Below are positions 13,841 through 42,288 of a DNA stretch of 64,000 nt, piece by piece. The stretch is from an uncultured Lentimicrobiaceae bacterium (GTDB lineage Bacteria; Bacteroidota; Bacteroidia; Bacteroidales; 4484-276): NCBI GenBank assembly GCA_964593705.1, contig CAZQIV010000018.1:586-64585 (forward strand). Direction: 5' to 3'. The notes under the pieces are model-generated. The model did not search any database. It had not been told where the DNA came from and was given only the letters and a program-made list of their open reading frames with translations. The first letter of the stretch is position 1. Each line of letters opens with the position of its first letter. The position numbers and the translations under genes were made by a program.

Positions 13841-13851
13841 GATAATTCGTT

Positions 13852-16496: not shown

Positions 16497-16611
16497 GATC
16501 CTCCCATTCAGGGTATCCCGAAAAGCCCCGATGGCTATCAGGGTCGGGAAAGGGTATCGTGGCTTTTTAGACTGGCCTCGATAGTGATATCAAAAAGATC
16601 AATTCAGCAAG

Positions 16612-16643
16612 AATCCCCGAATGACATGGTGCATTCGGGGATT
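16612..16643 (-). terminator. 12-bp hairpin 19 nt downstream of the giant-gene stop
   Basis: AATCCCCGAATG (16612-16623) pairs with CATTCGGGGATT (16632-16643). It is flanked by an A-tract and a T-tract, so it may act in both directions. Confidence 0.5.
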
Positions 16644-16661
16644 TTTAATCTATTGCTAAAA

Positions 16662-19600
16662 CTATTCTGTATCCAGAATAAGCTTTTTGTAATGGTATTT
16701 TCCCTGACTAAATATTCGTACCATATAAATACCTGATTGCTGATTCATGAGGCTTAATTCATATTGAGATGTTGCATTACTAATCTCATATTGTACTGCT
16801 TGTCCATTTATATCGAATATTTCAATTATGGCATCGGCATCTATCCCCATTATCCTGAATCTTCCGGTAGTTGGGTTTGGATAAATACCTATTTCATCAC
16901 CAAAATTATTGGTAATGCCTGTTTCAGAAGATTTGAATTCAGTAATGGCTGATAATCCGTTTTCAACAAATGTACCGTCAGCATTTGGTAAGGATGTGTC
17001 AAATATTGGGAAGATTTCAAACTCTAAATATGTATCAGGATTATAAAGCCTGAACCGGATGAGTTCGCCTTGATCAAAACCTACTTTTTGAGCACAATAC
17101 ATTTCATTACCAAATACAGTAAGACCATTTACTCCAAAACCGATTGGTGTGAGTCCAAAGCATTTTCCGCTAGGATCAAAGACCCCAATAAGACAGCCTT
17201 GATCAAACCCTTTTACTGCATCCGGATAAATGGCAAAAGAGTGGGTTGAAGCGGTAGGCATAGTTAACTCCCATGGTGAAATCTCTGAAATGGCTGCGAA
17301 TTCCCCAAGTGTATTTGAATTAGGAGGATAATCAATAGCCCCCTTCATACAATCCTCAAAGGTGATTTCAAAGGCATTTGTTGCCAGGGCATAATATGCC
17401 TTGCCCGGCATAACATTGCCAAGACTATTTATACCCATTGCCGGCCAATAAACATTGTATCCTGCAAGCTGTTTAACAATCACAAGATCATATTCTAATC
17501 CTGCAAACAATGATGCCACATCTGCCGGACAAGCAGAGACTACTGGAATGAGATTCCAACCTTCAGCCAACTGAAGTGTTTTGTTTTCCTCTAATAAGCC
17601 AAGTATATTGAGGTTGGCTCCGGCATTGGTTTTTACTTTGTAAGCTGAGTGTTGCTTCCAGGTGTCGATAGTATTGATGTTATATGCCGGGTAGTAGATT
17701 TCTTCCTCAGTAATTGCAACCACCAGCCTTTCCAGAATGCTGTCGTAAATATTTTCAATTCCTGCATCCTTTGGCATTACATAGCTGGATAAGCCTGACC
17801 AACCCAAGGGGAGGCTAACATTATGTATAGCCCATGTGTCCTGGGTAATTGTAAATATTGCTCCAAGGACACCATCTGCTGTTTCGATATTTACCTCTCC
17901 TAACTTACTCGAAGCTGAAGAGTTCTCCATATAGCTAACAGTTATAGTTCCGTTCCCGGTAGAGTCAGGACTGTCAATACTGAGCCAATCTTCAGTTTCA
18001 TTTGCTATCCATGAGCAATTGGAGATTACATCAAAGTTTAAAGTGCCTTCAATTGGAGATACCATTTGGTTGGCTGGATTTACACTAAGATACGGATTAG
18101 CACCTGCCTGGAAAACCTTTACAATAGCATCAAGGCCTGCTGGTGAACAAATTATTACCTTGCCAAAACGCTCAAGAAGTGATAAATTTTCTTCATACTC
18201 AAGAATTAATACATCATTACCAAAACCGGTATCTGAGCTTGTTCTTAACCATTCTCCTTCTACCCGTACTAACCAGGATAAATTTGATACCACATCTAAT
18301 GTTTCGCTGCCAGCAAATGCTAACACATTCAGCATGTCAGGACTAACAGAAAGTATCGCTTCAACGCCTGCCTGGCTTATGGGAACAACAACATCTGGTA
18401 TCCTGTCGGCTGAAATCGTTATGCTTCCCTCCCGTGAATCGATTATCGGGTTCTCATTATAATGCACAGCAATTGCATTGCTACCGCTACCAGTTATTGG
18501 GACAATAGTCAACCAATCCACATTACAAGCAATATTCCAGGAAGTGTTGGAGGCAATATTGAAAATGGTGTCCCCGGCAATTGCTTGCACATTCAGAGTA
18601 TCCGGGTTAACAGAAAGTGACGGGGCTCCACGGGATTGATAAATTGTAACAACTGAATTTGGCACTCCATCTGCTGAAACCGTTATGCTTCCCACCCGTG
18701 AGATGATTGTTGGGTTTTCATAATAATGCACAATTATTTCGCTGCTATTGCTACCATTTGCTGTATCAACAGTCAACCAACCCACATCACTTACAATATC
18801 CCAGGCAGTGTTAGAGGAAACATTAAAAATGGTGTCACCTTCAATTGCTGCCACATTCAGAATGTCCGGAATAACAGAAAGAGTTGTGTCGCCGCGTGGT
18901 TGATTGATTGTAACCACCGCAGGGGGTACTCCATTTGCTGAAACCACGATACTTCCCACCCGTGGGATGATTGTTGGGTTCTCAAAATAATGTACAACTA
19001 TTGCGCTGCTATCGCTGCCATTTGTTGAATCAACAGTTAACCATTCTACATTACTTACAATATCCCAAGACGTATTGGAGGCAACATTGAAAATGGTGAC
19101 ACTGTCAAATGCTGGCACATTCAGAAACTCTGGATTAACAGAAAGTGTTGTATCACCGTGTGCCTGATTGATTGTTATAGTTGCAGGATCTGCGCCATCG
19201 GCTGTAACCGTTATGCTCCCCATCCGTGGGTCAATTGTTAGGTTTTCAGCATACTCCACAGTTATTGCGCTGCTATCGCTACCATTTGCCTGGACAACAG
19301 ACAACCAATCCACATCACTTGCTACATTCCATGAAGTATTGGAGGCCACATTGAAAGTAGCGACACTGTCAATTGCTGTCACATTTAGATTGCTCGGGTT
19401 CACAGAAAGTGTTGTGTCGCCGCGCGCCTGGTTAATTATAACCACTGCATCAGGCACTCCATCTGCTGAAACCGTGATTCTTCCTTCCCTTGGGACGATT
19501 GTTAAGTTTTCAGCATAATTCACAGTTAATGCACTGCTATCGTTATAAATAGTTGAGTCAACTAACAACCAATTCACATTACTTAAAGCCTTCCAGGAAG

Positions 19601-31600: not shown

Positions 31601-34600
31601 AGCTTTGGAAAAAGCCACTGAATCCTCCTCCAGGTAATCCCGAAAAACCAGTTGCATTATTTTCGGATAAATTATTCCCGATGCTACAAATAAAAGTAGA
31701 AGGATCCCAATGTGTTTGGGCTGCCAGGGCTTTTGCAATGTAACTTGAATTTTCATCGCACCGATAGTCAGGCACGTTGCTAACATAATCTGTAAGTGTG
31801 ATCCACTCAGCATCAGTTGGAAGGAACCATCCTGCTGGGCAAATACCCTGCCTGCCTGAAGTAGTGTCGTATTGCATCATTTCGTTCCACTGATACAGGC
31901 CACCATAAACATTGCAATTGTCTTCCTCGTTATCGTAACAATATTTTTCGATTGTACCGTTGTTAGTCTGCTCTTCCGAACCAATTAATTTTGTTCCCAC
32001 ATTCAGGTTTTCAGCCATCCAGCACTGCTCACCAATTTGTCTGGTGGTATAAATGTGGTTATCACGTACATCAACGAAGGAATTATTACAGGCGAAAGCG
32101 ACGGTTGAAGTTGTAAATTCAAGCTGCGTACTGTAAGCAGTTCCCACGCTGCTGGTGGCATAGGCCCTAATATAATAAGTTTGACCGGGTGCAAGCCCTG
32201 TAATGCTGGCTTCAAAAGTTCCGGTGCCTGAGCCATTGTTAGTATGTGTATTTGATATGCCAGGAAGGGGCTCTGTACCCACACAAAAACCACGTGCAGT
32301 AACTTCCATTCCGCCACTGAGGCTATCCTTTCCGGACAAAGATGCACTTACATCCGTAAAGTTGCTAACTGGTGTTATGCTAACTGTTGGCAAATCCCCC
32401 ATTACACAGCGTACCGAGAAACCATAATCCTTCTCGGGGTGGCCAAGGTAAAACTTTTCGCCATTGTAGTTCATAAAACGGCGCCATGCAAGAAGATCGC
32501 CATCCTGTGTCGATGACCACCAAATTCCAAAGGTTTTCAAGTCATAAAAATTTCCATTGGTATGGCGGCGTCCACCGGGTAATGCTGTAAAGCCGGTGGT
32601 ATTGTTTAACAATGTATCGTTGCCAATTGCACAGGTAATATCACTTGGGCTCCATTTTGTAGAATCTGCCAGGGCTTTGGCAATAAAGTTTGGAGTATTG
32701 TTACATTTATAATCCTGGTTTATCTTTACAGAATCTATTAATGCTGTCCATTCGGCTTTGGTGGGCAAATGCCATCCATCAGGGCAAATTCCCTGCTCAC
32801 CTTCAAGTGCAGTGTATTGCATCATTTCGTTCCATTGGTAAAGGCCACCATACGCATCGCACTTGTCTTCTTCATCATCGTAGCAGTATTTTTCGATGAT
32901 ACCATTTTCCAATTGGTCTTGAGATCCGTCTATTTGTTCTCCGTAATTAAGGTTTGCAGCCATCAAGCATTTGTTGCCCAGATGAAGTGTAGGGTAAACC
33001 CGGCCATCCCTGCTATCAGTTAATGAATCGCCGCAGGCAAAGGATGTAGAAAAGCTTCGCTCATCACCATAGGCCGTCCCATGGGTATTTGTGGCATAAG
33101 CCCTCACATAGTATGTAGTATTCTTGCTAAGTCCGGTAATGGTGTCATTAAATCCACCTATCCCGGAGCCAGATCTGACCGTATCGTTTTCGATGGTGGG
33201 ATTTGGTGAATTGCTCCAGCACAGGCCGTGTTCGGTAACCGGCCTTCCACCGTCCTTACTTATATTGCCACCCGAAATGGCTGTGGTATGGGAGATTTTG
33301 CTTACAGCCTTGGTGCTAAGGATTGGGAGCTTTACTTTAAGGCACCGCACTGAGAAACCATATAAAACATTGTCAACTTTTCGAATTACTTCAGCTGACT
33401 CGGACTTGAGGCCACGCTGCCAGGCCGTGGAGGAATTGTTCCTGTTAGATGACCAGAAATGAGCCACAGCTTTTAATCCCGATAGCGCTCCTCCAGTGAT
33501 ATCGCGATAACCGCTTCCCAAAGCAGCAAATCCGTTTGTGCCGTTTCCAGCATTTGGATTGTTCCAGTGAGCGACACCACTTTCTTTTAAAAAGTCTCCG
33601 GCTGTGCCACGCAAGCCAACGAACAAACAATCAATGTCTTCATCATAATGCTGTTCTAACGCACACCAGTCGGCATCGGCAGGGAGAAACCACCCATCGG
33701 GGCAAATACCCTGCCTGCCTGATGTGGTGTCGTATTGCATCATTTCGTACCATTGGTAGAGGCCTCCATATTCTTTGCACTTGGCGTCGTCATTATCGTA
33801 ACAGTATTTTTGGATTGTATCGTTATTGGTTTGATTTTGAGCTCCATTTATTTTTACTCCCACATTCAAATTATCGGCCATCCAGCACTGCTCACCAATT
33901 TCTATGGTATTGTAAATCTGAAGTGTATCGGAACGATAATCACCGATCCGGTTGCCACAGAAGGCGTATTTTATTTCCCATTGAGCCCCGTATGCTGTAC
34001 CTTTTTCCTCGGTGATGGCATAGGTTCTTACATAATAGCGGGCCAAGGGATTAAGCCCATCAACATTAACTACAAATACATTGTCCTCTCCATCATCAAT
34101 AATTTTGCGATTGGTGATGGTGGGATTTGGGGCTAAGCTTATGCATACTCCACGTTCAGTAATAGTAATATCCACTTCAATGTTGGGATTGGTTTCGCCC
34201 ATAACTTTGGCCGAGTCGGGTGTAATATTAAATACCTGCTTTGTTTTTACAATAGGTAGTGCTGTTCTTACACAGCGCACAGACAAGCCTTCACTCCGAC
34301 CAATACCAAATTCATTAGCCAAAACATTAATTCCATCGCAAGATAGGCCTCGGTATCTGGCTAGCTCATCATCATTTTTTGTTGAAGTCCACCACCAGGT
34401 ATTCTTATAAAGTTCACCATAAGAAGCGGGGTAATTATTAAAGGCTCGGATACCCATACCTGCCGGTAAAGCCGTAAATCCAGTTGCATTGTTTTTTGTT
34501 AAATCATGGCCGGGTACACAAGAATCATATTCAGAAGGTTCCCAATGTTCGTTAGCTGCCAAGGCTCTGGCAATGCCACCAATTCCATAATTGCCGCACA

Positions 34601-37600
34601 GATATTCCTCCTTGTTGCCAATAAAATCGGTAAATGTTGTCCACTCTTCATTAGAGGGTATATGCCAACCAACGGGGCAAATGCCCTGCGCACCTTCTGT
34701 TTCGTTATATTCCATCATTTCGTCCCATTGGTAAAGGCCTCCGTAATAAATACAATTATTTTCATTATCATTATAGCAATATTTTTCAAAAATATCATTA
34801 TCTGTTTGGTCCTCATCAGAACTCTGATCTCTAAATTCACCATGCAAAAGATTTTCGGTCATCCAGCATTGTGTGCCATATGTTGCAGTTGAGTATACAA
34901 TATGATCTCGAGGGTCCATAAATTCAGTGCCACAATCAAAAAGATAGCCGTTAATAAAAGAGTTTGTTTCAAACACCTTCTGGCTGCCATAAACGGTGCC
35001 AATTTCATTGGTGGCATAGGCTCTTACATAATATTTTACCCCTGGGGTGAGCCCTTCAATATTGCTTGTAAATGCACCTATTCCTTCAGAGTTAATGGTT
35101 TTCATGTCGCTTGTATTGGGGTTTTGGGTTTTGTTCCAACATACGCCACGGGCAGTAACCTGCAGGCCACCATTGTTGCCTACAATACCGCCTGTAAGAG
35201 CAGAGGAATCAGTTACATTGCTTACAGATGTGGTGATAATACTGGGGAGAGCTCCCCTTATGCAACGCACACTGAATGCATTCCACCTGCTGGCGGTGTA
35301 ACGGTTCACCTTGTTTCTAGCTGTGGCAATGTGGCGTCTCCATGGCGTAGTTTCATTAAAGCTGGTAGATGACCACCAGTAACAGCTATCTCCAAGTCCC
35401 TCGAAGGTAATGTATTCCTGGCGTTTGCCCGCCATAAGACCATCAAAACCAGAATTTCCGCTTGGCTTTAGCTTTGCACCGGCAACTACGCCTCTCCAAC
35501 CTGTTGCATCGCATAAAACACTATTGGGTTCAGGTTCAACTGCATTTTCCAATGTACACCATTCTGCGTCAGTAGGCAGGTGCCATCCCGGAGGGCATAT
35601 ACCCTGTGCTGCTTCAAAAGTTTCGTATTGCATCACTTCGTTCCATTGGTAAAGGCCTCCAAAGGTGTCGCAGTTGTCTTCATCGTTGTTGTAGCAATAT
35701 TTTTCAATTGCATCATCGTCAGTTTGATCATTCCAACTATCCATTTTTGTTCCCACATTCAGGTTTTCAGCCATCCAACATTGTTCACCTATTTTTACAG
35801 TGGCATATTCTATTGGTTCCTCCCCTCGGGCATCAATTAAGACTTCATTGCAATCAAAAGTGGTAAAAAACTCAAGCTGTTCCCCATAAGCTGTACCATC
35901 GTTATTGGTGGCGAAGGCTCTAACATAATAGAGCATCCCCGGATTAAGATTATCTATGGAAATGGAATAGTCGCCAAGTTCATTTCCTGCAATGCTCATA
36001 TTTCCCGGGCTGTCGATTGTAGGATTTTTCTCCAGGCTGTAACAGACGCCTCGTGTTGTAATATCAGTTCCACCAGCATCGCTTACATTGCAATTGCAGG
36101 TGGCGGAGTTTTTATCGACATCGCTTACCGATCGTGTGGTTACGGTGGGCAAATGCCCCCGAATACAACGCACGGACAGGCCATAAGACTTTTGGTAAAC
36201 ATCGGAAAGTAAAGATGCTGAAGTATGTAAAAGGTATCGGCGCCGGGCCCTTGTATATTCCGTCTGTGTTGATGACCACCACTTGCCAAGGGTTAAGCCA
36301 TCGAAGAAAGAGCCATTGTTGTGGCGACTCCCGGCGGGTAATGCCGCAAAACCTGTGGCGTTGTTCTGACTTAAATCATTACCAACTGCACATGATTCAG
36401 TTGACTCCTCCCAGGCAAGCGTGTCTGCCAGGGCTTTGGCAATAGCATTTGAATCAGTACTACACAAATAATTTGGATTACTTTTTACAGATTCCTGTAA
36501 AGTAAGCCATTCAACATCCGATGGCAGGTGCCAACCCGGTGGGCAAATTCCCTGTCCACCTTCGTTCTCCTCATATTTCATCATTTCGTCCCACTGGTAT
36601 AGGCCACCATAGACAGCACAACTGTCTTCCTCATTATCATAGCAGTATTTTTCGATCACATCATTTTCAGACATGTTTTCCGAAGAATAAACCCTTACCC
36701 CATAGTTCAGGTTTTCGGCCATCCAGCATTGCTTGCCAATCCTTACCATCGAATATTCCTGGCCGCCCTCACGGGTATCGGTAAACAAACCCTCGCACGA
36801 CTCGAGGACTGCAGTAAACTCCACTTCGTTACCATAGGTCGTTCCCTGGCTACTTGTAGCCCAGGCCCTCACATAATAAGTCTGACCCTCGTCTAAGCCG
36901 CTTATTGTGCTTGAAAAACTACCTAATCCACTGCCATTAGTTGTTTCAATGGTATTTGAGCCACCTTTTGTAGGCTTAGGTGTCTTGCTTAAAACAATGC
37001 CCTTTTCGGTAATTGGGTATCCGTTGTCCTCCAATACAGCACCACCGCATACTGCGCTTGATGTAGTTATATTTACAGCATTGTTGGTAGTTACAGTTCG
37101 CGGAGTTTCCCGGAGGCAGCGTACTGCAAGTCCATCATTTTTATTTCGGAGTGGTCGCGCCATCGTTTTAAAACCATTATTAAGGGAACGCCCCCATGCG
37201 CCAGCAGCATCATAATTTGTACAAGTCCATAAGACACCATAGGAGTTCAAATACACAAACGAACCATCTATATCGCGTCGGCCACTCGGCAAGGCTGTAA
37301 AGCCGCTACTGTCGGTAGCTCCATAGTTAGGGCTATTCCAGTGGGCAGTTCCGGTTTCTTTCAGTTGTCCACCGGCATCAGTCCCAGACCAACCGGTAGA
37401 GGAGCAATCTACTGTAGGATCGAGGAATGTTGTCAAGATGCACCAATCGGCATCAGTGGGCAAGCGCCAGCCCTCGGGGCAAATGCCCTGCAGGCCTTCT
37501 TTGGCTTGGAATTGCATCATTTCGTCCCATTGGTAGAGGCCACCGTAAGTATCGCAATTTGCAGGGTCATTGTCATAGCAATATTTTTCATTGGTTTGGT

Positions 37601-40079
37601 TATCAGTTTGGGCATTTGAACCATTAATCATTACACCATGATCCAGGTTTTGAGCCATCCAGCACTGTTCACCTATTAATATGCTAGCGTACTTTTTGCC
37701 ATCGCGGGTATCGGTCAATGAGTCGCCACAAGTAAGTTTGCATGTAAATTCCATTTGTTCTCCATAGGCTGTACCTGTCATACTGGTAGCAAAAGCCCTT
37801 ACATAATAGGTTTCGGACGAATTAAGCCCGTTTATGGTGTGACTGAATGTTCCTGTTCCGGCACCAATAATAATATTATCTCCGGCAATGGTAGGATTTG
37901 GCTCAGTGCCCCAGCACAAGCCGTGGGCTGTAACTTCATTTCCGGCATCACCGCTAACATTTCCACCACATACGACGCTTGTTTCTTTAATATTAAGTAC
38001 TTCTGAGGTGGTTACGTAGGGTAGAACTCCATGTATGCAGCGCACTCCATAACCATCTGTCATAAAGAGTTTTTCGCGGAATACACCACTCGATTCTTTA
38101 TTAAGGAAGCGACACCAAGCTTGGGTAGGGCTGTGCAAGGTAGAGGACCAAAAGCTGCCAAATACTTTCAGGAAGGAAAACTGGTAGTTTTGGCTGTACA
38201 ATCCATTTCCTAAGGCTGTAAAGCCACTGCTATTTGTAGCTCCGGTATAGGGGCTGTTCCAATGAGCTGTTCCGGCTTCTTTAAGTTTTTCACCGGCATC
38301 AGTCCCAGACCAACCGGTAGAGGAGCAATCTACTGTGGCATCGAGGAATGATGTCAAGATGCACCAATCGGCATCTGTGGGAAGACGCCATCCCTCGGGA
38401 CAAACGCCCTGCAGGCCTTCTTTGGCTTGGAATTGCATCATATTATCCCACTGGTAAAGGCCACCGTAGGTAGCGCAATTTGCATCCAAATCTTCATAAC
38501 AATATTTTTCAATATCATCTTCATTGTCCTGGTTTTCTGAACCATCAATCCTAGACCCCACATTTAGGTTTTGGGCCATCCAGCACTGCTCACCAATTTG
38601 TTTGCTAGCGTACTTTTTACCATCACGGGTATCGGTAATTGAGTCTCCACAAACTAGTTTTGTAGTAAACTCCATTTGTTCTCCATATGCTGTACCCGCC
38701 TGGTTTGTGGCAAAGGCTCTTACATAATAAGTTTCGGACGAATTAAGCTCGCTTATGATGCCACTAAAAGCTCCATTTCCGGCACCAATAACAGTAGAGT
38801 AATCGGCAATAGCAGGATATGGTAGCGTGCCCCAGCACAAGCCACGGGCTGTAATTTCATTACCGGCATTATTAGTAACTTCTCCACCACATGCGGCGGA
38901 GTTTTTACCAATGTTGGTTACTGCCTGGGTAGTAAGGGTTGGCAGAATTCCCCTAATGCAGCGTACGCCATATCCATCTGTCATAGCACGGCTGGTACGA
39001 TCCATATTGCTTCTTCCATAGCCAAGGTGCCGACACCAAGCTTGGGATGAGCTGTATGTAGTTGATGACCAAAAACTACCATAATCAAGCAGATATTCAA
39101 AATTATCGGAATGTCTTTCTCCATTTCCTAAAGCTGCAAAACCAATGCTATCTGTAGCTCCGGTGTTATTAGTACTCCAGTGTAGGTTTCCGGTTTCTTT
39201 TAGTTTTCCACCGCCATCATCACCCCGCCAACCGGTACTTCTGCATTCTATGTTGTCGTCAACTTCCTGTTCCAGGATGCACCAATCGGCATCGGTGGGC
39301 AGGCGCCATCCCACGGGGCAAATGCCCTGCAGGCCTTCTTTGGCTTGGAATTGCATCATATTGTCCCACTGGTAAAGACCTCCATAAGTTTCGCAGTTAT
39401 CATCTTCATCATCGTAGCAGTATTTTTCCAGAGTGCCGGTATTTGTTTGGTCGTTAGAACCATTGATTCTCGTTCCTACATTCAGGTTTTCAGACATCCA
39501 GTGCTGTTCGCCGATTTTCACTATACCATACACCTTATTATCACGGGTATCAATAAATGAGGTAGTAAATTCCCTTACTTCACCATAAGCAGTATCCTGA
39601 CTGCTAATGGCCCAGGCCCTTACATAGTAAGTTTTTCCTACGGTAAGGTTAGTTAATGTTCCCGAAAACTCGTCCATACCATCGCCATTATTTGTGCTGT
39701 CTGTCATAAATTCAATGGTAGGGTTTGGTTTAATATGCCAAACTAAGCCCTTTTCCAAAATTGGGTACGCACCATCATCAGTAATTTCACCACCACAAGT
39801 TGCGCTTGTTGTAGTAATATTGCTTACAGAGTCCGTCCTGACTGTTAATTCTCCTATCACAAATGTAATTTCATTTGAAAAGTCTGAACCGGCAAAACCG
39901 TTGTCGATGGCCTGCACAGCACAATAATACCTTCCTGAATTTGGAACTATTAAGTATGCACTAGTATTTTGGCAATTACCCATGGCAGCAATTTTCCGAT
40001 GGCCACTTGCAATATTTGCCATTGCAGATACAATTTCTTGACCTCCTGGTGTAGTCCCTATACGAATATTATAGGTCAA
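16662..40079 (-). CDS. giant multidomain T9SS cargo / adhesin-like surface protein (7,805-codon distal part of a 25-kb frame)
   Basis: Uninterrupted 23,418-nt ORF whose called start is a TTG with no signal peptide. The domain series is listed in the features below. It ends in a T9SS C-terminal sorting domain. Confidence 0.85.
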   Translation of the reverse strand: MTYNIRIGTTPGGQEIVSAMANIASGHRKIAAMGNCQNTSAYLIVPNSGRYYCAVQAIDNGFAGSDFSNEITFVIGELTVRTDSVSNITTTSATCGGEITDDGAYPILEKGLVWHIKPNPTIEFMTDSTNNGDGMDEFSGTLTNLTVGKTYYVRAWAISSQDTAYGEVREFTTSFIDTRDNKVYGIVKIGEQHWMSENLNVGTRINGSNDQTNTGTLEKYCYDDEDDNCETYGGLYQWDNMMQFQAKEGLQGICPVGWRLPTDADWCILEQEVDDNIECRSTGWRGDDGGGKLKETGNLHWSTNNTGATDSIGFAALGNGERHSDNFEYLLDYGSFWSSTTYSSSQAWCRHLGYGRSNMDRTSRAMTDGYGVRCIRGILPTLTTQAVTNIGKNSAACGGEVTNNAGNEITARGLCWGTLPYPAIADYSTVIGAGNGAFSGIISELNSSETYYVRAFATNQAGTAYGEQMEFTTKLVCGDSITDTRDGKKYASKQIGEQCWMAQNLNVGSRIDGSENQDNEDDIEKYCYEDLDANCATYGGLYQWDNMMQFQAKEGLQGVCPEGWRLPTDADWCILTSFLDATVDCSSTGWSGTDAGEKLKEAGTAHWNSPYTGATNSSGFTALGNGLYSQNYQFSFLKVFGSFWSSTLHSPTQAWCRFLNKESSGVFREKLFMTDGYGVRCIHGVLPYVTTSEVLNIKETSVVCGGNVSGDAGNEVTAHGLCWGTEPNPTIAGDNIIIGAGTGTFSHTINGLNSSETYYVRAFATSMTGTAYGEQMEFTCKLTCGDSLTDTRDGKKYASILIGEQCWMAQNLDHGVMINGSNAQTDNQTNEKYCYDNDPANCDTYGGLYQWDEMMQFQAKEGLQGICPEGWRLPTDADWCILTTFLDPTVDCSSTGWSGTDAGGQLKETGTAHWNSPNYGATDSSGFTALPSGRRDIDGSFVYLNSYGVLWTCTNYDAAGAWGRSLNNGFKTMARPLRNKNDGLAVRCLRETPRTVTTNNAVNITTSSAVCGGAVLEDNGYPITEKGIVLSKTPKPTKGGSNTIETTNGSGLGSFSSTISGLDEGQTYYVRAWATSSQGTTYGNEVEFTAVLESCEGLFTDTREGGQEYSMVRIGKQCWMAENLNYGVRVYSSENMSENDVIEKYCYDNEEDSCAVYGGLYQWDEMMKYEENEGGQGICPPGWHLPSDVEWLTLQESVKSNPNYLCSTDSNAIAKALADTLAWEESTESCAVGNDLSQNNATGFAALPAGSRHNNGSFFDGLTLGKWWSSTQTEYTRARRRYLLHTSASLLSDVYQKSYGLSVRCIRGHLPTVTTRSVSDVDKNSATCNCNVSDAGGTDITTRGVCYSLEKNPTIDSPGNMSIAGNELGDYSISIDNLNPGMLYYVRAFATNNDGTAYGEQLEFFTTFDCNEVLIDARGEEPIEYATVKIGEQCWMAENLNVGTKMDSWNDQTDDDAIEKYCYNNDEDNCDTFGGLYQWNEVMQYETFEAAQGICPPGWHLPTDAEWCTLENAVEPEPNSVLCDATGWRGVVAGAKLKPSGNSGFDGLMAGKRQEYITFEGLGDSCYWWSSTSFNETTPWRRHIATARNKVNRYTASRWNAFSVRCIRGALPSIITTSVSNVTDSSALTGGIVGNNGGLQVTARGVCWNKTQNPNTSDMKTINSEGIGAFTSNIEGLTPGVKYYVRAYATNEIGTVYGSQKVFETNSFINGYLFDCGTEFMDPRDHIVYSTATYGTQCWMTENLLHGEFRDQSSDEDQTDNDIFEKYCYNDNENNCIYYGGLYQWDEMMEYNETEGAQGICPVGWHIPSNEEWTTFTDFIGNKEEYLCGNYGIGGIARALAANEHWEPSEYDSCVPGHDLTKNNATGFTALPAGMGIRAFNNYPASYGELYKNTWWWTSTKNDDELARYRGLSCDGINVLANEFGIGRSEGLSVRCVRTALPIVKTKQVFNITPDSAKVMGETNPNIEVDITITERGVCISLAPNPTITNRKIIDDGEDNVFVVNVDGLNPLARYYVRTYAITEEKGTAYGAQWEIKYAFCGNRIGDYRSDTLQIYNTIEIGEQCWMADNLNVGVKINGAQNQTNNDTIQKYCYDNDDAKCKEYGGLYQWYEMMQYDTTSGRQGICPDGWFLPADADWCALEQHYDEDIDCLFVGLRGTAGDFLKESGVAHWNNPNAGNGTNGFAALGSGYRDITGGALSGLKAVAHFWSSNRNNSSTAWQRGLKSESAEVIRKVDNVLYGFSVRCLKVKLPILSTKAVSKISHTTAISGGNISKDGGRPVTEHGLCWSNSPNPTIENDTVRSGSGIGGFNDTITGLSKNTTYYVRAYATNTHGTAYGDERSFSTSFACGDSLTDSRDGRVYPTLHLGNKCLMAANLNYGEQIDGSQDQLENGIIEKYCYDDEEDKCDAYGGLYQWNEMMQYTALEGEQGICPDGWHLPTKAEWTALIDSVKINQDYKCNNTPNFIAKALADSTKWSPSDITCAIGNDTLLNNTTGFTALPGGRRHTNGNFYDLKTFGIWWSSTQDGDLLAWRRFMNYNGEKFYLGHPEKDYGFSVRCVMGDLPTVSITPVSNFTDVSASLSGKDSLSGGMEVTARGFCVGTEPLPGISNTHTNNGSGTGTFEASITGLAPGQTYYIRAYATSSVGTAYSTQLEFTTSTVAFACNNSFVDVRDNHIYTTRQIGEQCWMAENLNVGTKLIGSEEQTNNGTIEKYCYDNEEDNCNVYGGLYQWNEMMQYDTTSGRQGICPAGWFLPTDAEWITLTDYVSNVPDYRCDENSSYIAKALAAQTHWDPSTFICSIGNNLSENNATGFSGLPGGGFSGFFQSFSGSTLFTYWWSSTRMISSSYSLLRSLSHSNKKVFTNGFSKIEGLSVRCIKGKLPTINTADIDDITDNTASSGGNVGNEGSSPVTARGVCWSVSPNPTIYNNLTDDGEGSGDFTSNITGLSPLSTYYVRVYANNSMGTAYGEQMEFTTSTFACDNPMTDSRDGKEYAVVKIGEQCRMAENLNFGERIDGSEEQMNNDVIEKYCYNNIEDSCNTYGGLYQWNEMMQYTINESANGICPAGWHLPTDTEWNIFSDFIMDQSAFLCNANTSNIGKALAAQTNWNTDDTDTCNVGFSLNTNNATEFAGLPGGRRRYTGSFLDVKEHGMWWSSTQVDAENSKRRVLSYNDARFLPHQPLKSQGFSVRCLKGAYPTVSTSSTSNATPGSVITGGHISDGGGMEITARGVCWSTTEHPTLADSFTTDGAGTGIFSSSITGLNIGQSYFVRAYATNSLGTAYGEQQTILTASVMSPSGNALNFDGVNDYVVIPNENQFDFTDSLTVEAWIKVTAFNHPYQAIVTKGDNSWRIHRQGSTNHIAVDINGLNPYKLESNTDVSDGKWHHVAFVFDGTNTYLYIDGKEDDSNLNVDGSINLNNEPVQIAANSEMSGRNFNGMIDEVRIWNDARTVDEIHENMFRPLSDTEDNLVSYWSMDQSSGNILTDHTGRNHGILQNMNDDDWVSSGAFAGPRNGIKLDGVDDRITIDHNSIHPEGTIEFWLYPESFFNFNTIFDNGGVNEWKMLIYANTNLSFAIDGESVEYNLNNLQGDKNWYHVAVLWQQHDGSMVDYYLYIDGVLRDTQKDRNWHDQLRYFYIGGNGDENKGKFTMDEFRYWSDMRTEQEIRENMCRTLTGNENNLLIYYRFDQTDGDNKVYDATSGNKYDYMFFTDASCWVNSNAFNTWVGCTDNSWGTASNWSTQQVPNADTTNVGIPFIAGGNNPSINSSYSCNNLTIETGATLSTSTGLVLSTFGNPYCYGTISGNAKVKMTGPNPMHYPSGNFVNLVLDNPIGASLSGDMTITGTLELTDGNMDQGSYNIKLGEMGYLAESGENSLSGTTGTISTTRALHAGDLSEGKNIAGLGAEITMDGALDITTITRGYSPQGTGQSSIYRYYDIAPASNTGLDASLKFHYNGNELNENEPGALKLYSSSDDGDTWQPRGGEVNEVNESISLDNLYTFSRWTASDDTLGNTLNAAFEADTTIGSTSFDVQFTDLSSYDNVDSVSWSWDFGNGNTSVSRIPASQTYSLNGDDLTNYTVSLTITEADSSSKQVKEDYITVCPDNYWVGEVDTTWTADESPYYVGGEIIVPLGDTLTIEPGVSVLFRPNSIDWQEMPAQPTRENIDFGFMTVYGTLDVQGEENDSVVFTRMGNKGSWGLVHIVDTANPGGEQIRYLKMEHASYMYDEGKELAGLCLDNNDVTVRNSRFSNNYIGIKCNSSNAHIEHNSLSENHIGISLTSSAAYISDNDIMLNQTNGITCLNDTSSITGNRIRFNVKNGLYCEQSDTAKIIGNTIEGNKNGIHSINSIGMIISADTIKANSEYGIICENDSTFISANDISDNGINGVDFYKSFSMVSGNNILNNAHSGIHCDLSDPSIEGNNITGNINGILCKNASKPHIDGNAISYNWAGIGCYEGSVPQILHNIIASNSNTGIDVASGAKATLVSNTITDNNGYGVYCYDDASVIIDNSILWGNGASIVAPGSQATVTWSCVQGGYEGEENIIKDPMFIQKGNEKYHLKWSSFPFKDGVNISPCINTGNPDLNGNDTLWIDDPEDRDPDMSCADMGARYYHQLPLVTIMYDNDSTKNNYNFEEQLFIPDVSEPKMFQVKNDADRLNECRLFFTDPPGYDNQFHVDGRKPDTDTILILLPYALDSVNIVYEPTHVINNLQSHVIVGERETYADSITLSGISIGSGTVQGTITTLFNSNVKDVTVSVIPIPPNGKVYFDSTDVNGFYSVSNVGYGEFYVKPEYNENGLQHEFNPEASTVQLYTNVPSIRNFNDVSVFPVSGRIVFYGDNNNCPSENILMKIDGSPTTATDENGEFTFGGVSLGYHTFAPELTAHTFFPSDYTIYVDGPKGGIDFIDEFTNNLSGYIAGAGGDFDTIPISSDSIPITFHCTANCMPDVEIKTDLKGFYSVDLPPLEYEVTPQGILYNNYGYPGDLPKDTLIKFDPVNVDLTVGDTIQDFFFHSEPVIEIMGFDSVTNGYNMVVLEQFEQYWVDIKVYEPYRGVNDEGSDTLYKCMQDTGIIVIMNNLSDLPGEEIPYSDTLPLYSFYAGLPNISAGGVHPYQKSLDIRYLINDLQRTAHQEWVYIVGQRPRASAFATTSPEIPLLILRDPPGDQSYSELSESTEVSTSISISHKLDESIGLSRTVNLGATFESLSGFGFQINTKVEVTLETTSSLNINMSQNWVKENQLSFETSEIFTTSQSDFDVGQKGDLYVGAAMNLIYGITDVLTIDGSEVKVDQELIVVPDGFETTYIYTEGHLENVVIPTLYLIGDEKSAHRWEDYIALNQSLKDEAEFIENISFNGGPSYSYTETTVKSKTNTFEFDLNIAREIALTAGVEINDFGLNGTVSASFGYTYGNSEVNTEVNTNTVSYTLQDDDQYDNMTVDIMQDPVYGTPVFVTLSGQTMCPHEENTQPRQGCSLGQHEFNMFGAPPDEEVVFQGFRMINEGQSNEAMDYELLVQNASNPYGAIIKAAGTVISASNSLIYNIPANELIEINISVARPPGGIYDFEGLKLELRSTCESGPGFSDIATFNVHFTPPCSPVSLQAPQDNWHVNQSNLDTLAVIINGYDYTNPQLNKIGLEYSSVNGNDWFEIFSFTRQEIQNTITQEGIWVVGNFSGSYRLRAFTECNNGDRNYSMIAEGVIDDVPPQVIIRRPTDNILHSGDEISFTFNEKLDPSSVNLNNIQIVHPDSGTIIPSSIQYDQDLKKVFLTIDPGISYFIEDETLQAEVIGVKDLNGNLLNGKDSINFLVNQGPLGWNPNSHNASIFVDESICFTSTLQNSSSKNVPYSVLLPNWLSADQPLSGNLSGAGGSVVYEFSSDSLTGQFYWDTISVTMLGYPKETLPISVTVTGGGSLEVSPLTDSVPSSIPEGAEYGEVVFNVLSSVVAWSVSENEEWLSLGVPNMGAYNGPFTIRYDENTSYYERTGEIYVSAWGMPDFVVTITQAGAEAPLEIDPYIQEVTATAGITYFYVTTNYNFIDDEQWKVDSIADWLSVSPLTDTANYQLSVAYSKDTMVGGRIGSFSVLIDGVYEVVGKVQQAGADTILSVEADTLNNLSYEQDTAYIIVEANCSWKLNESLDWLGIYPNSGVGDTTLAVYYTENTIAGQRSGVITTSVVGIPNVLWLDTIMVTQNGPPATLAVDTTEMDVPATSGSISFDVTSNTQWTASTDDDWLNPLPEIGNGSGTLSVHYSKNPLAAPRNGTVTLSADSVESIEITINQDAADTALVVSPANRNVSASDGATSFEISSTTTWSVSESANWLSVNQGTGIGDSTLIVNYEVNNLISGRIGMITILADGVPNVMVSINQAGGTPVLEVGPPHRDVTGSSGSTTFNVSSNINWMVWNVEDWISVSPLIGMNTDTITVSYEGNPSTNPRTASILIWGSEVPSAVVTITQDAGNSILTVSPIARNVTSVQDTTTFTITSNTEWTVSVETGVDWFTVLPFEGIENEVLKLVYNENTTIDERQGSITVEVEGVLSEVVTIYQAGGDTTLSVNPSNLNVPAFDSVTIFNVMSNTFWNAASNVNWLSVVPENGADSSAITVEYAKNLTIYPRVGSVMVSSVGVPDAVVTINQAGGDTTLSVNPSNLNVPAFDSVTIFNVNSNTSWKALSNVNWLLVDSTIYNDSSALTVNYAENLTIVPREGRITVSADGVPDAVVTINQARGDTTLSVNPEFLNVPAIDSVTIFNVMSNTFWNVASDVDWLSIIQTNGADSSAITVEYAKNLTIDPRVGSVMVSSVGTPPAVVTINQAGGDTTLSVNPDSLYLAAFEGDTIFNVASNTSWKALSNVNWLLVDSTIYNDSSALTVNYAENLTIVPREGRITVSADGVPDAVVIINQARGDTTLSVNPSNLNVTAIDSVATFNVASNTSWNVASDVDWLSVVQANGSDSSAITVEYAENLTIDPRMGSITVTADGADPATITINQAHGDTTLSVNPEFLNVPAFDSVTIFNVASNTSWDIVSNVEWLTVDSTNGSDSSAIVVHYFENPTIIPRVGSIVVSANGVPPAVVTINQPRGDTTLSVIPDILNVAAIEGDTIFNVSSNTAWDIVSDVGWLTVDTANGSNSSEIIVHYYENPTIISRVGSITVSADGVPNSVVTIYQSRGAPSLSVNPDTLNVQAIAGDTIFNIASNTSWNIACNVDWLTIVPITGSGSNAIAVHYNENPIIDSREGSITISADRIPDVVVPISQAGVEAILSVSPDMLNVLAFAGSETLDVVSNLSWLVRVEGEWLRTSSDTGFGNDVLILEYEENLSLLERFGKVIICSPAGLDAIVKVFQAGANPYLSVNPANQMVSPIEGTLNFDVISNCSWIANETEDWLSIDSPDSTGNGTITVSYMENSSASSKLGEVNIETADGVLGAIFTITQDTWAIHNVSLPLGWSGLSSYVMPKDAGIENIYDSILERLVVAITEEEIYYPAYNINTIDTWKQHSAYKVKTNAGANLNILGLLEENKTLQLAEGWNLIPVVSACPADVASLFAGLEYDLVIVKQLAGYNVYWPAMGINSLGNVMPGKAYYALATNAFEITFEDCMKGAIDYPPNSNTLGEFAAISEISPWELTMPTASTHSFAIYPDAVKGFDQGCLIGVFDPSGKCFGLTPIGFGVNGLTVFGNEMYCAQKVGFDQGELIRFRLYNPDTYLEFEIFPIFDTSLPNADGTFVENGLSAITEFKSSETGITNNFGDEIGIYPNPTTGRFRIMGIDADAIIEIFDINGQAVQYEISNATSQYELSLMNQQSGIYMVRIFSQGKYHYKKLILDTE
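16665..16895 (-). other. T9SS C-terminal sorting domain (Por secretion tail)
   Basis: IGIYPNPTTGRFRIMG...IEIFDINGQAV...SGIYMVRIFSQGKYHYKKLILDTE. Confidence 0.85.
17840..22390 (-). repeat. about 17 tandem BACON-like (Ig-like) modules of about 88-90 aa
   Basis: The recurrent pattern is ...L.V.P..L.V.A......F.V.SN..W.....V.WL.V....G..S..I.V.Y.EN....R.G.I.V.A.GV...VVTINQAG. Seventeen T-I-N-Q-type module ends were counted by hand. Confidence 0.7.
19395..20136 (-). repeat. recent 528-nt (two-module) intragenic tandem duplication
   Basis: 19395-19608 and 19923-20136 are identical at 213 of 214 positions by hand alignment, differing only at 19438/19966. Flanking segments with the same 528-nt offset are also highly similar. 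Confidence 0.85.
22720..23010 (-). other. SbsA-Ig / Big_5-like domain
   Basis: DDVPPQVIIRRPTDNILHSGDEISFTFNEKLDPSSV...LQAEVIGVKDLNGNLL. Confidence 0.55.
23010..25000 (-). other. unassigned roughly 660-aa Ser/Thr-rich beta-type core
   Basis: The sequence from ...PLLILRDPPGDQSYSELSESTEV... to ...FTECNNGDRNYSMIAEGV matches no domain I can name. Confidence 0.4.
25450..25895 (-). other. two carboxypeptidase-regulatory-like (CarboxypepD_reg) beta-sandwich domains
   Basis: GTVQGTITT...DVNGFYSVSNVGYGEFYV and VSGRIVFYGDNN...TDENGEFTFGGVSLGYHTF. Confidence 0.6.
26550..27400 (-). other. right-handed parallel beta-helix (PbH1) repeat region
   Basis: More than ten repeats of roughly 23 aa of the type N.I..N...GI.....S...I..N. 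Confidence 0.75.
27790..28050 (-). other. PKD domain
   Basis: FDVQFTDLSSYDNVDSVSWSWDFGNGNTS...YTVSLTITEADSSS. Confidence 0.7.
29050..30200 (-). other. two LamG / concanavalin-A-like lectin domains
   Basis: ALNFDGVNDYVVIP...TVEAWIK...WHHVAFVFDG...LYIDG...FNGMIDEVRIWN, and a second copy GIKLDGVDDRITI...WYHVAVLW...LYIDG...MDEFRYWS. Confidence 0.8.
30210..39848 (-). repeat. 10 tandem units of [about 95-aa Fn3-like beta-sandwich plus about 205-aa FISUMP (Fibrobacter succinogenes major paralogous) domain], followed by an 11th beta-sandwich
   Basis: Ten YGGLYQW...GICP.GW.LP...W motifs and ten ...SVRC(I/L/V) domain ends were counted. They are interleaved with modules ending YYVRA(Y/F/W)ATN..GTAYG. 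Confidence 0.8.
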
Positions 40080-40124
40080 ACCGTCCTGCGGCGTTTCGGT
40101 GTCGGTGGATTTGTCCCAGCTTAT

Positions 40125-40127
40125 TTA
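40125..40127 (-). other. single in-frame TAA separating the two parts of the 25-kb frame
   Basis: The minus-strand reading is ...tcc ggg atg gag gtt TAA ata agc tgg gac aaa tcc acc gac acc gaa acg ccg cag gac ggt ttg acc tat... The 15 codons from 40124 down to 40080 are open and in frame with both ORFs. Confidence 0.9.
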
Positions 40128-41669
40128 AACCTCCATCCCGGATACATTAATGCTAAGGTTTGCTGGTGTACTCGGTATGGTGTTATTGTTGGTTTCCTCA
40201 TTTTTGTATATTTTTGAAATGTACCCATCAGCGGAATTTCCTGTTAGCAGGATGTCCAGGTCACCATCCTTGTCGTAATCGCCCCAGGTGACACTGGAAT
40301 AGCAAACCCCGGGCAATCCGGCATCAATAGCTGTAAAACTACCTCCCCCATTATTGCCATAAACCTTTGAAACACGCCCATCAGGTGAATATCCTGTCAA
40401 GAGGATATCCAAATCACCATCATTGTCGTAATCGCCCCAGGCTACACTTGATGCATCTACGTCTGGTAAAACGTCATCAATAGGTGTAAAACTATCATCT
40501 CCATTATTGTGGTAAATTATTGAAACATTATTCCCATTGGTTAATTTGCCAGTCAAAAGCAAATCGAGGTTACCATCACTATCGTAATCACCCCAGGCTA
40601 CAGCTGAATTATCCACTCCCTCTAACACATCGTCTGTAGCGATAAAATCCCCTGCTCCATCATTGCGGTAAATACTTGAAATCCTAACACCATTTGAATT
40701 CCCTGTCAAAATAAGATCCAGGTCTTCATCATTATCGAAATCGCCCCATGCTACACTGGAATAATCTAAACCAGGCAATCCGGCATCAATATCTGTAAAA
40801 CTACCTCCCCCATTATTGCAATAAATCTTTGAAACACGTCCATCATCAGGTGAATATCCTGTCAAGAGGATATCCAAATCGCCATCATTATCATAATCAC
40901 CCCATGCTACACTGGATTTTTTTACGCCAATCAATCCGGCTTGGATATCAATAAATCCATTTACTGCATTATTTTGGTATATTTTTGAAATAGAACCCTG
41001 ATCTGATTCTCCTGTTAAGAGAAAATCCAGGTCACCATCATTGTCATAATCGCCCCATGCTACGCTGGAGTTTTTTACACCAATCAATCCGGCATTAATA
41101 TCAGCGAATCCATTTACTGCATTGTTTTGGTATATTTTTGAAATAGGACCATCATCTGAATCTCCTGTCAAAAGAAAATCCAGATCCCCATCGTTGTCAT
41201 AATCACCCCATGCTACACTGGAAGATGATACCCCAGGCAAAGAGGTTACGGTATCTTCTATAAAACCATATTCCCCATCATTACGGTAAATCTTTGAAAT
41301 AAAACCATCATCTGAATTTCCGGTCAAAAGAAAATCCAGGTCTCCATCGCTGTCATAATCACCCCAAGCTACACTTGATGCGTTTACGCCAGTGAGAGAA
41401 TCGGCCTCGCTGAAGCTTCCTATCAGAGGCATCATACCTGGAAAAGGGATCGGCAAATCAGGACTAAGCAAATCTTTATGGGATGCTTTTAGGCTTTCAT
41501 CCTCATCAATGGAAACATGCGCATCTGCGCCAGCAAGCGAAACAGTTTTAAAAACGGTGTTCGTGTTCGGTTTGGTTTCGCTGTTAAAATCAGTGTTATT
41601 GCCAGCAAATCCGGCAAATCCAATAATGCTGCAAAGCAGCAGGGAGATAGAGAGTAAAAGTTTTTTCAT
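40125..41669 (-). CDS. signal peptide plus 8 FG-GAP/VCBS repeats; proximal part of the giant frame, ending at the in-frame TAA
   Basis: Signal peptide MKKLLLSISLLLCSIIGFAG, followed by eight repeats of SSVAWGDYDNDGDLD(F/I)LLTG....ISKIY.N. Confidence 0.85.
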   Translation of the reverse strand: MKKLLLSISLLLCSIIGFAGFAGNNTDFNSETKPNTNTVFKTVSLAGADAHVSIDEDESLKASHKDLLSPDLPIPFPGMMPLIGSFSEADSLTGVNASSVAWGDYDSDGDLDFLLTGNSDDGFISKIYRNDGEYGFIEDTVTSLPGVSSSSVAWGDYDNDGDLDFLLTGDSDDGPISKIYQNNAVNGFADINAGLIGVKNSSVAWGDYDNDGDLDFLLTGESDQGSISKIYQNNAVNGFIDIQAGLIGVKKSSVAWGDYDNDGDLDILLTGYSPDDGRVSKIYCNNGGGSFTDIDAGLPGLDYSSVAWGDFDNDEDLDLILTGNSNGVRISSIYRNDGAGDFIATDDVLEGVDNSAVAWGDYDSDGNLDLLLTGKLTNGNNVSIIYHNNGDDSFTPIDDVLPDVDASSVAWGDYDNDGDLDILLTGYSPDGRVSKVYGNNGGGSFTAIDAGLPGVCYSSVTWGDYDKDGDLDILLTGNSADGYISKIYKNEETNNNTIPSTPANLSINVSGMEV

Positions 41670-42240
41670 AGTTCATTTTCCTTTCATTTTTGTTGAGATG
41701 ATCTATATTTTATAAAATTTCATTTATTACACAGCATGTCCCACAAGGCCAAAGCCAGGAGTTCTCTTGCCATTGCATCACGGAAGTTTAAAAAAAATCA
41801 GTTTCTGGGGGTGCAGAACTTTCAATATCCATATTTGCATGACTAATGCAAATACAACTTTTATCATTTCACTGGTTCTTTCACTAATAAATTTAAACAC
41901 ATAAAGTGCTTAAAAAATGCGGCTTATATTTTGAACAAGGAAAAGCTCCTTGCAGAGCCTTTTTGCAAAGCCAAACATTGGAGGTTAAAAATGTTGAAGG
42001 AAAAATAATTTAAAAAAAGGATAGAAAAACTGTTGGTAGTTGTTGGTAAGGAAATACAGGAAACTTTGCTGGCAGCGATGTTCCCAAGAGATTCGGCGTT
42101 TAGAGTTGTAGCTTTCAATTTTTTGCAAACCCTGAAAGCCACGTAAATTAGATACCTCTTATAATATGAACATTTTTGAATAATATTCATTTTCAACTTT
42201 TTGTGAAACCAAAAATTAAAAAAAATATTCTATTTCAACA

Positions 42241-42283: not shown

Positions 42284-42288
42284 TTCCC

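Follow-up and report, generated by a model that had tools for sequence, protein, structure and literature searches.

A single in-frame TAA divides a giant reading frame of 8,335 codons in the window, by which is meant the whole stretch of 64,000 nucleotides analysed here, derived from an uncultured Lentimicrobiaceae bacterium. The interrupted frame probably represents a lineage-specific T9SS cargo gene in which codon 515 was freshly turned into TAA, leaving the gene a functional null.

One reading frame and one interruption

Two ORFs were present in the ORF listing of the window, an upstream one of 514 aa with an ATG start (40125..41669, minus strand) and a downstream one of 7,805 aa with a TTG start (16662..40079, minus strand). 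An earlier note on this DNA had claimed that both share a frame and that one TAA is the sole interruption, and this was confirmed by translating 41669..16662 as a single frame, in which stops were found, among 8,336 codons, only at codon 515 and at the terminal TAG. The frame is thus uninterrupted over 25,008 nt except for this TAA, and the junction reads GGG ATG GAG GTT TAA ATA AGC TGG GAC (SGMEV*ISWD). The 15 codons between the TAA and the TTG, ISWDKSTDTETPQDG, are open, as had been noted, and they also lack any possible start codon (ATG, GTG or TTG). In 7,820 codons of the same composition, about 480 stops would be expected by chance; the distal frame has none, and the remaining two frames of the same strand have 432 and 725. 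The features of the gene are the following:

16662..41669, minus strand: the gene as a whole, interrupted by one internal TAA; 8,335 codons, counting that stop, precede the terminal TAG
41601..41669, minus strand: Sec-type signal peptide MKKLLLSISLLLCSIIGFAGFAG, the only one of the gene, read from the sequence and from its hydrophobicity against that of downstream starts
40182..41390, minus strand: seven FG-GAP_3 repeats (beta-propeller), joined residues ~94-496 (Pfam PF13517, E 1.9e-46, 7 stretches)
39852..40181, minus strand: Fn3-like beta-sandwich after the propeller, joined residues 497-606, which carries the stop
40125..40127, minus strand: in-frame TAA, codon 515, next base A, identical in contigs L001, L002 and L003
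40077..40079, minus strand: TTG, the gene caller's start for the 7,805-aa piece, with no signal peptide behind it
31302..39227 (approximate), minus strand: roughly ten Fib_succ_major (FISUMP) domains in alternation with Ig/Fn3-like ones (Pfam PF09603, 6 + 4 stretches)
29721..30176, minus strand: Laminin_G_3 / concanavalin-like lectin domain, with a second copy nearby (Pfam PF13385, E 1.2e-48, 2 stretches)
26757..27392, minus strand: right-handed beta-helix (Beta_helix / NosD) region (Pfam PF13229, E 6e-32)
17052..22307 (approximate), minus strand: arrayed BACON domains, about 14 in number (Pfam PF13004, 13 stretches and 1 more)
16677..16886, minus strand: T9SS type A C-terminal sorting domain (Por_Secre_tail, PF18962), the only one of the gene

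Giant multidomain T9SS cargo or adhesin-like proteins of the Bacteroidota, with a signal peptide and a Por_Secre_tail/TIGR04183 CTD, are a known class, to which FG-GAP/VCBS and FISUMP (TIGR02145) proteins belong. The joined frame resembles them in its succession of signal peptide, FG-GAP, Fn3-like, FISUMP, LamG, beta-helix, BACON and type A CTD, in which PKD/Big_5 lie between the beta-helix and the BACON domains. It also shares the FG-GAP, fn3 and CTD layout of its relatives, of which P0383, P0381 and P0304 have FG-GAP, fn3 and Por_Secre_tail domains in a single chain. Unlike the relatives checked, however, the present frame is several times larger, at 8,335 residues, and its chain is broken, so that signal peptide and sorting domain fall on different products.

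T9SS cargo needs an N-terminal Sec signal plus a C-terminal domain. The claim that the sole signal peptide lies upstream of the stop and the sole sorting domain downstream of it was upheld by Pfam and by hydrophobicity. The Por_Secre_tail match (E 4.1e-13) covers residues 1706-1775 of the last piece, which are the final 70 residues of the distal ORF. The signal-like N-terminus was called by reading the sequence and by Kyte-Doolittle hydrophobicity rather than by a dedicated predictor, and its best 10-residue mean is 2.82, against a best value of 1.87, with no charged n-region, among the 31 start codons available within 800 codons downstream of the stop. None of these starts, the called TTG included, opens a signal-like leader, and neither a signal peptide nor a lipobox was present at any start of the distal piece examined. 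The TAA at codon 515 therefore parts the signal peptide from the CTD, which would occur together only in a hypothetical uninterrupted protein. The presence of two CTD-bearing genes within these 64 kb suggests that the organism has a T9SS.

The stop lies in strand B of the Fn3-like domain behind the FG-GAP propeller. In 101 of 120 homologues, the module is continuous across this site, and the residue opposite the stop is most often T (46), followed by L (9), I (8), W (7), V, S and K (6 each) and others. The alignment places the stop against a sense residue without gaps, and no indel is involved. The module is also continuous in 626 copies from 105 of 149 large representative proteins, whose median length is 2,531 aa and whose longest member has 7,066 aa, and no split at the equivalent site was seen among the homologue sets examined. 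An AlphaFold2 model of the domain (pLDDT 77.8) fits a beta-sandwich, with Fn3 and PKD domains as best PDB matches at a marginal E of ~1e-3. These data bear out the placement of the stop inside a single Fn3-like unit. Together with the position of signal peptide and CTD on opposite sides, the interruption of a conserved domain supports reading the 514-aa and 7,805-aa ORFs as the two parts of a single gene (about 8,335 codons).

The stop in other assemblies and the genomic setting

The same TAA was found in three further contigs (ENA ERZ27317826, ENA ERZ27316679 and JGI 3300031657), which were built by different pipelines, two being MEGAHIT-style contigs from separate ENA analyses and the third coming from a JGI assembly. 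In fact, it is present in every public contig covering the site, and these contigs are 99.99-100% identical to the window. All of them represent one clone, with 0-2 differences in 13-21 kb and none within the gene, which leaves no power for a pN/pS comparison. When the neighbouring HtpG (42538-44448), a marker unbiased toward the stop allele, was used for a look-up, four contigs were obtained; one of them is displayed with the 514-aa gene, and the remaining three are reported as similar places. The distal protein's 90% cluster consists of the two split versions only, and no intact version of the gene was returned by protein, cluster or representative searches. Since separate ENA and JGI assemblies share the TAA in all covering contigs, a chance error in assembly or sequencing appears unlikely, and the TAA is, as far as these contigs indicate, real in the DNA of a clone sampled in several metagenomes.

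It is also unlikely that the TAA is a systematic error or only one of two alleles, an intact allele co-existing with it or being the only one that exists. Such a reading would be favoured by the consensus nature of metagenome contigs, by the internal 76%-identical repeats of the gene, which fragment assemblies, and by the copies being essentially one clone from possibly related samples, some of the assemblies possibly deriving from the same ones and thus being of limited independence. However, the identical codon was recovered by different pipelines, it lies in unique sequence, outside the repeated FISUMP modules and outside long homopolymers, and the searches run never returned an intact version.

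The domain combination of the joined frame is without a close orthologue, the best domain-level identity being ~50-60% among the matches listed. In genome contigs, the search for an orthologue gave only generic FG-GAP matches, at no more than 56% identity among the matches listed, and a junction-centred query of metagenome contigs, in a collection without the source contig, gave nothing above 45% identity. Two word-indexed protein searches returned domain-level homologues only, their listed matches being at most ~1.75 times the query length, so that giant relatives cannot appear there. An exhaustive representative search returned the gene's own distal piece plus domain-level matches only. A literature search on interrupted giant genes found nothing relevant.

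Sister genomes, the closest relatives available, were reached by way of neighbouring genes and their 90%-cluster relatives and showed 72-94% nucleotide identity. Their synteny with the window ends at ~42376 and ~16292, and different genes occupy both positions, the giant gene being absent at both syntenic flanks. The region is variable, and other surface-protein genes are carried there by the sister genomes. From this absence, the giant gene appears to be accessory and lineage-specific, and its loss is thus plausibly tolerated.

Readthrough, recoding and a second in-frame stop

The earlier note had left three causes open, namely a recent nonsense mutation, an error and some readthrough, of which the first is favoured here, random error being countered by the three further contigs and readthrough by the lack of structure, tRNA and recoding signals. 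It is quite improbable that the stop is tolerated or used, either through low-level UAA readthrough or as a reversible off state, with the distal ORF under selection. Smaller still is the chance we give to the specific claim that trace amounts of an 8,335-residue cargo are made by readthrough, or that the allele can revert from off, with the distal 23.4 kb under purifying selection. A fully open distal frame of 7,820 codons is what such a use of the stop would predict, and giant surface proteins, being costly and often targets of phages or grazers, are ones whose switching off might pay. However, recency alone equally predicts an open frame. UAA is the least leaky stop codon, and it is the main terminator here. 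The stop context is UAA-A, neither a leaky context nor a stimulatory structure was found, and the RNA fold of the 111 nt past the TAA is no better than that of shuffled sequences (z = +0.17). No Rfam element matched, no tRNA, whether suppressor or tRNA-Sec, was found in the 64-kb window, and there is no repeat tract at the site that would enable reversible switching. The case resembles programmed readthrough and selenocysteine recoding of UGA in that the coding sequence continues in frame past the stop; it differs from them in that the stop is UAA, without a downstream element.

Other routes were rejected as well. Frameshifting does not apply to two pieces that are already in the same frame, a suppressor tRNA was discarded in a window without tRNA, and DGR-type mutagenesis was set aside, as neither a reverse transcriptase nor a template repeat was seen and the site lies outside a lectin-type variable region.

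A genuine two-gene arrangement, in which a periplasmic FG-GAP propeller protein is followed by a separately translated 7,805-aa protein, is very improbable. Public annotations do call proteins of 514 aa and of 7,805 or 7,786 aa, and the 514-aa piece holds a complete 7-blade propeller set. Nevertheless, the boundary falls within a beta-strand of a conserved domain which is not split in this way in the homologue sets examined, the distal piece has neither signal peptide nor lipobox at any start, and the intergenic 45 nt continue the domain in frame, the junction showing neither a terminator nor a notable promoter. An altered genetic code, or a dedicated recoding of TAA, for which nothing speaks beyond the in-frame stop itself, is effectively refuted by stop usage in the window and is next to impossible, as TAA terminates 30 of 41 ORFs at ends matching full-length Pfam domains and TGA likewise terminates complete PDDEXK_3 genes. 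The standard code is therefore in use, and a recoding signal for TAA is absent.

The earlier note had also pointed to a second T9SS cargo gene (2576..3388) carrying exactly one in-frame stop. This observation holds, but the stop is a TGA (2795-2797) and the case is unrelated rather than parallel. Five other distinct orthologous loci have a TGA at this codon as well and, downstream of it, share 62-81% identity with the window, and 34 of 36 database homologues end at the UGA point. The Cys homologue P0261 has CSWC opposite the U-SSC of the window (a UxxC redox motif). Redoxin and Thioredoxin_8 Pfam matches are weak and below threshold, and the structure model of the P0261 Trx-like domain, with a pLDDT of ~40-55, was left out of the fold search. 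A SECIS-like hairpin with 11 base pairs, 10 of them consecutive, begins 11 nt past the UGA; in 6 sequences its pairing is complete (100%), 3 of the pairs being compensatory, and its score was reached by 0 of 500 shuffles, the fold at the hairpin being unremarkable from the window sequence alone. None of selA, selB, selC and selD lies in the 64-kb window. The UGA most likely encodes selenocysteine, and the gene is a candidate T9SS-tagged selenoprotein gene. Since this UGA is conserved and likely a selenocysteine codon, it is uninformative on assembly errors or readthrough at the TAA of the giant gene.

Origin and meaning of the stop

In the favoured explanation, that of a recent nonsense mutation, one base substitution would have changed a sense codon 515 to TAA. 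An ancestor one step away could have been TTA (Leu), TCA (Ser), AAA (Lys), CAA (Gln), GAA (Glu) or TAY (Tyr); homologues show each of these six amino acids at the stop position. Ribosomes would terminate after the propeller, and the 514-residue product would be exported by Sec with no sorting domain, hence without hand-over to the T9SS. Any restart downstream, at the TTG or at an ATG, would yield a sorting domain without a signal peptide, and such a product would stay in the cytoplasm. As neither product would combine both signals, the gene would be functionally null, an incipient pseudogene. From the T9SS export rules, we infer that function has been lost, and it is likewise inferred that the mutation is recent and that the distal part is neither translated nor exported.

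The 23.4-kb distal frame would still be open because there has been too little time for a second disruption, and none is present downstream. With 988 effective nonsense sites computed for the distal ORF, a neutral frame would stay open with P > 0.05 only up to ~0.3% divergence, and an assumed indel rate lowers this limit to ~0.1%. The age of the mutation would thus be at most ~0.1-0.3% neutral divergence if the downstream part is unconstrained. This limit fits a clone whose copies show no sequence variation in the gene. The gene resembles young nonsense pseudogenes in having one premature stop in a conserved domain with the remaining frame intact, and in being annotated as two adjacent ORFs of the same frame, the second called at a weak internal start. 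It differs from typical ones in its conspicuous undamaged distal frame of 23.4 kb, which bounds the age of the mutation tightly.

For annotation, these results mean that the public 514-aa and 7,805-aa "proteins" would be one interrupted gene and not two families, and that the 7,805-aa database entry should not be taken for a leaderless T9SS cargo. The locus would offer a datable example of the knockout of a very large accessory surface-protein gene. With about 1,000 effective nonsense sites, such a gene is a roughly 25 times likelier target than a 1-kb gene. A nonsense knockout is therefore expected behaviour that calls for no new mechanism, and the event is an ordinary mutation in an unusually large gene. 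A more useful by-product is the protein that combines a conserved UGA/UxxC with a T9SS sorting domain; it is a candidate T9SS-targeted selenoprotein, split by automatic annotation in nearly every relative.

Reading frame, domain layout and export signals of the giant gene

An earlier note on this DNA had placed two ORFs in one frame with a single TAA as the sole interruption, and the joined translation of 41669..16662 on the minus strand confirmed this arrangement, since its 8,336 codons contained just two stops, the TAA at codon 515 (40127..40125) and the terminal TAG. The local reading at the first stop was GGG ATG GAG GTT TAA ATA AGC TGG GAC (SGMEV*ISWD), and the 15 codons from the TAA to the TTG of the distal piece were open and devoid of any start codon. 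About 480 stops would be expected in 7,820 codons of the composition of this gene, and the other two frames of the same strand held 432 and 725; the distal frame cannot be open by chance. The two ORFs and their domains were as follows.

Features of the interrupted gene (ORF listing and Pfam)
40125..41669, minus strand: upstream ORF, 514 aa, ATG start
Within the 514-aa piece, minus strand: seven FG-GAP_3 repeats
16662..40079, minus strand: distal ORF, 7,805 aa, TTG start
Distal piece, minus strand: about ten Fib_succ_major (FISUMP) domains alternating with Fn3/Ig-like domains
Distal piece, minus strand: two Laminin_G_3 domains
Distal piece, minus strand: right-handed beta-helix, PKD, Big_5 and BACON (about 14) domains
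Final 70 residues of the distal piece, minus strand: Por_Secre_tail, the type IX secretion (T9SS) sorting domain

The N-terminus of the gene, MKKLLLSISLLLCSIIGFAGFAG, was by inspection a typical signal peptide. The first 800 distal codons offer 31 candidate starts, but none was signal-like, the best hydrophobic window there reaching 1.87 versus 2.82 at the real N-terminus. The hydrophobicity scan and the Pfam matches thus bore out that the only signal peptide lies upstream and the T9SS C-terminal domain downstream, and that the called TTG start has no leader. The signals for inner-membrane export and outer-membrane sorting are on opposite sides of the stop.

The stop was also said to fall inside one Fn3-like unit, a claim sustained by the homologues and by structural modelling. 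In a word-indexed protein search, the FG-GAP region ran uninterrupted into a conserved module of ~110 residues in 101 of 120 homologues, with the consensus P..P.NL....G..V-x-LSW..STD.ETPQ.GLTYNLR.GT.PGG...YYW.VQAID..F.GS.F. The TAA aligned without gaps to position x, which was occupied by T (46), L (9), I (8), W (7), V, S and K (6 each) and others. The longest matches listed by this search were ~1.75 times as long as the query (544 aa against 311 aa, and 1,007 aa against 575 aa), so that giant relatives could be seen only in the representative search. That search, an exhaustive HMMER run over 1.84 billion representatives, found the module in 105 of 149 large proteins (median 2,531 aa, maximum 7,066 aa), where all of its 626 copies ran through the site unbroken. 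Three related proteins (P0383, P0381 and P0304) each had FG-GAP, fn3 and Por_Secre_tail on one polypeptide. The AlphaFold2 model of the module (mean pLDDT 77.8, above 90 near the stop) was a beta-sandwich in which the stop is predicted at the beginning of the second main strand; its best PDB matches were Fn3 and PKD domains, with E of only ~1e-3. The continuous module and the separation of the two signals by the stop support the view that the ORFs are two halves of one gene of ~8,335 codons.

Origin of the stop codon

The codons one step from TAA (TTA, TCA, AAA, CAA, GAA and TAY) encode residues found at position x in homologues, so that one substitution suffices for the stop. It is probable that codon 515 of a single giant gene for T9SS cargo became TAA through one recent substitution. 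T9SS cargo requires both a Sec signal and a C-terminal sorting domain. Translation would stop after the propeller, the 514-aa product would cross the inner membrane but lack the sorting domain, and any restarted distal product would carry the sorting domain but be unable to cross the inner membrane. The locus would be a functional null whose decay has not yet begun.

A hidden polymorphism or an artefact is an unlikely source of the split. An identical 514-aa product is on record for four contigs, and the three compared (ENA ERZ27317826, ENA ERZ27316679 and JGI 3300031657) showed 99.99-100% identity to the window across 13-21 kb and no difference in the 301 nt surrounding the stop; only two positions differed at all, 50784 and 50787 in L001, both in a repeat near 50,785. 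Since a look-up by the 514-aa product is biased to stop alleles, it was repeated through the neighbouring HtpG gene, which gave four contigs; the one displayed has the 514-aa gene, and the remaining three were reported as similar places. The distal protein falls in a 90% cluster with only two members, start-codon variants of the split version. The same TAA in separate ENA and JGI contigs, the HtpG look-up and this cluster make a chance assembly error unlikely. However, the sampled organism is one clone in all these contigs, and a minority intact allele may exist.

It is less probable still that the stop is tolerated or useful, with the distal part under continued selection. The distal ORF offers 2,963 stop-creating single substitutions (~988 effective sites), and an unconstrained ORF would stay free of new nonsense with P > 0.05 only to ~0.3% neutral divergence, or ~0.1% if frameshifting indels are assumed to arise at 8% of the substitution rate. 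An intact distal frame is what a very recent mutation predicts, so no special mechanism is needed.

A true two-gene arrangement, which would have to accommodate a stop within the module, is improbable; neither a terminator-like site nor a standout promoter was seen where the two ORFs meet. Recoding of the TAA can practically be set aside, as the genetic code is standard, with TAA ending 30 of 41 ORFs and TGA ending complete PDDEXK_3 genes in the window. The sequence gave no sign of programmed readthrough: the 64-kb window had no tRNA genes and no match to Rfam families, and the 111 nt 3′ of the TAA folded no better than shuffles (z = +0.17). Frameshifting was ruled out as the cause of the split because both pieces share one frame. 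Among the three causes put forward in the earlier note, recent nonsense mutation is therefore favoured, while chance assembly error and readthrough lost ground.

A second gene with an in-frame stop

A second T9SS gene of the window had been described as also carrying one in-frame stop. The single stop stood, but the case proved different.

2576..3388, plus strand: signal peptide, small N-terminal domain and Por_Secre_tail (Pfam)

Its stop is a TGA (2795-2797) in the context VILDLFQST-TGA-SSCQ, at which gene callers split the gene: 34 of 36 homologues were annotated only from just past the TGA, and two were N-terminal stubs whose last residues were exactly LFQST. The full-length homologue P0261 carries Cys at this position in a CSWC motif (UxxC in the window, U being the TGA). 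The TGA recurred at the same codon in five further distinct orthologous loci, the protein being conserved on both sides (62-81% identity to the window in the downstream parts). A hairpin at ~2809-2842, beginning 11 nt after the UGA, has 11 pairs (10 consecutive plus one), every one of which can form in each of the six sequences, three of them by compensatory change; its pairing or covariation was equalled by none of 500 shuffles. The N-terminal domain gave only sub-threshold matches to Redoxin and Thioredoxin_8. The gene neighbours were cydAB in the window and in two of the orthologous contigs (L099 and L106), and ApbE in two others (L102 and L105). Among the selenoproteins of marine metagenomes, the most frequent type has UxxC in a Trx-like fold (PMC2398784). 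Because of the conserved TGA, the CSWC homologue, the hairpin and this prevalence, the gene is a strong candidate for a T9SS-tagged selenocysteine protein with a putative Trx-like domain. A pseudogene was rejected given the conserved TGA, the Cys homologue and the covarying hairpin, and the gene lends no support to error-prone assembly or general stop readthrough. A full-text literature search combining selenocysteine with type IX secretion gave no paper on such a protein.

Genomic setting and consequences

Repeats were observed elsewhere in the window. The spacer between a spermine-synthase-like gene and an AdoMet decarboxylase gene contains two identical 108-bp direct copies (50530-50637 and 50728-50835, within 50497-50835), along with tandem copies of the 8-mer AATGATTG; the two differences from contig L001 fall inside this repeat. 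A 26-bp unit, ATCCGTGCATCCGTGGCCTAATTATC, is tandemly repeated on both sides of a PDDEXK_3 gene (52840-53259), at 52632-52784 and 53270-53366, and a similar array was present in the sister contig L113.

No close orthologue of the giant gene was found among the matches listed in a one-genome-per-species scan, nor in a JGI metagenome scan. The 90% clusters to which neighbouring genes belong led to sister genomes, where synteny was kept only to window position ~42376 on the HtpG side (72-76% nucleotide identity in L111, 88-91% in L113) and to ~16292 on the other (93.7% in L116). At the position of the giant gene they hold other genes instead: a 510-aa protein, GWxTD-like in appearance; a 1,462-aa fn3 protein accompanied by a 200-aa CTD protein; or a C69 peptidase. 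Other fn3 and CTD proteins adjoin HtpG there. As sister genomes lack it on both flanks, the giant gene is lineage-specific and lies within a variable region. This region (borders ~16292-16662 and 41669-42376) seems to be a variable island of surface-protein genes; no integrase or tRNA was found at its borders. G+C was 0.42-0.47 in the giant gene (window 16001-42000) versus 0.36-0.40 in the flanks, which could reflect amino-acid composition or foreign origin.

Immediately 3′ of the giant gene and in the same orientation lies a three-gene block that is kept together in L116 (93.7% nucleotide identity), there without the giant gene upstream.

11843-16139, minus strand: 405-aa protein without Pfam match; S8 subtilase, 356 aa; 665-aa protein without Pfam match

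If this block is co-transcribed with the giant gene, the nonsense mutation could be polar. A gene that is accessory in this way may well be dispensable. On the favoured reading, an accessory gene of extraordinary size has undergone an ordinary event, a fresh nonsense mutation.
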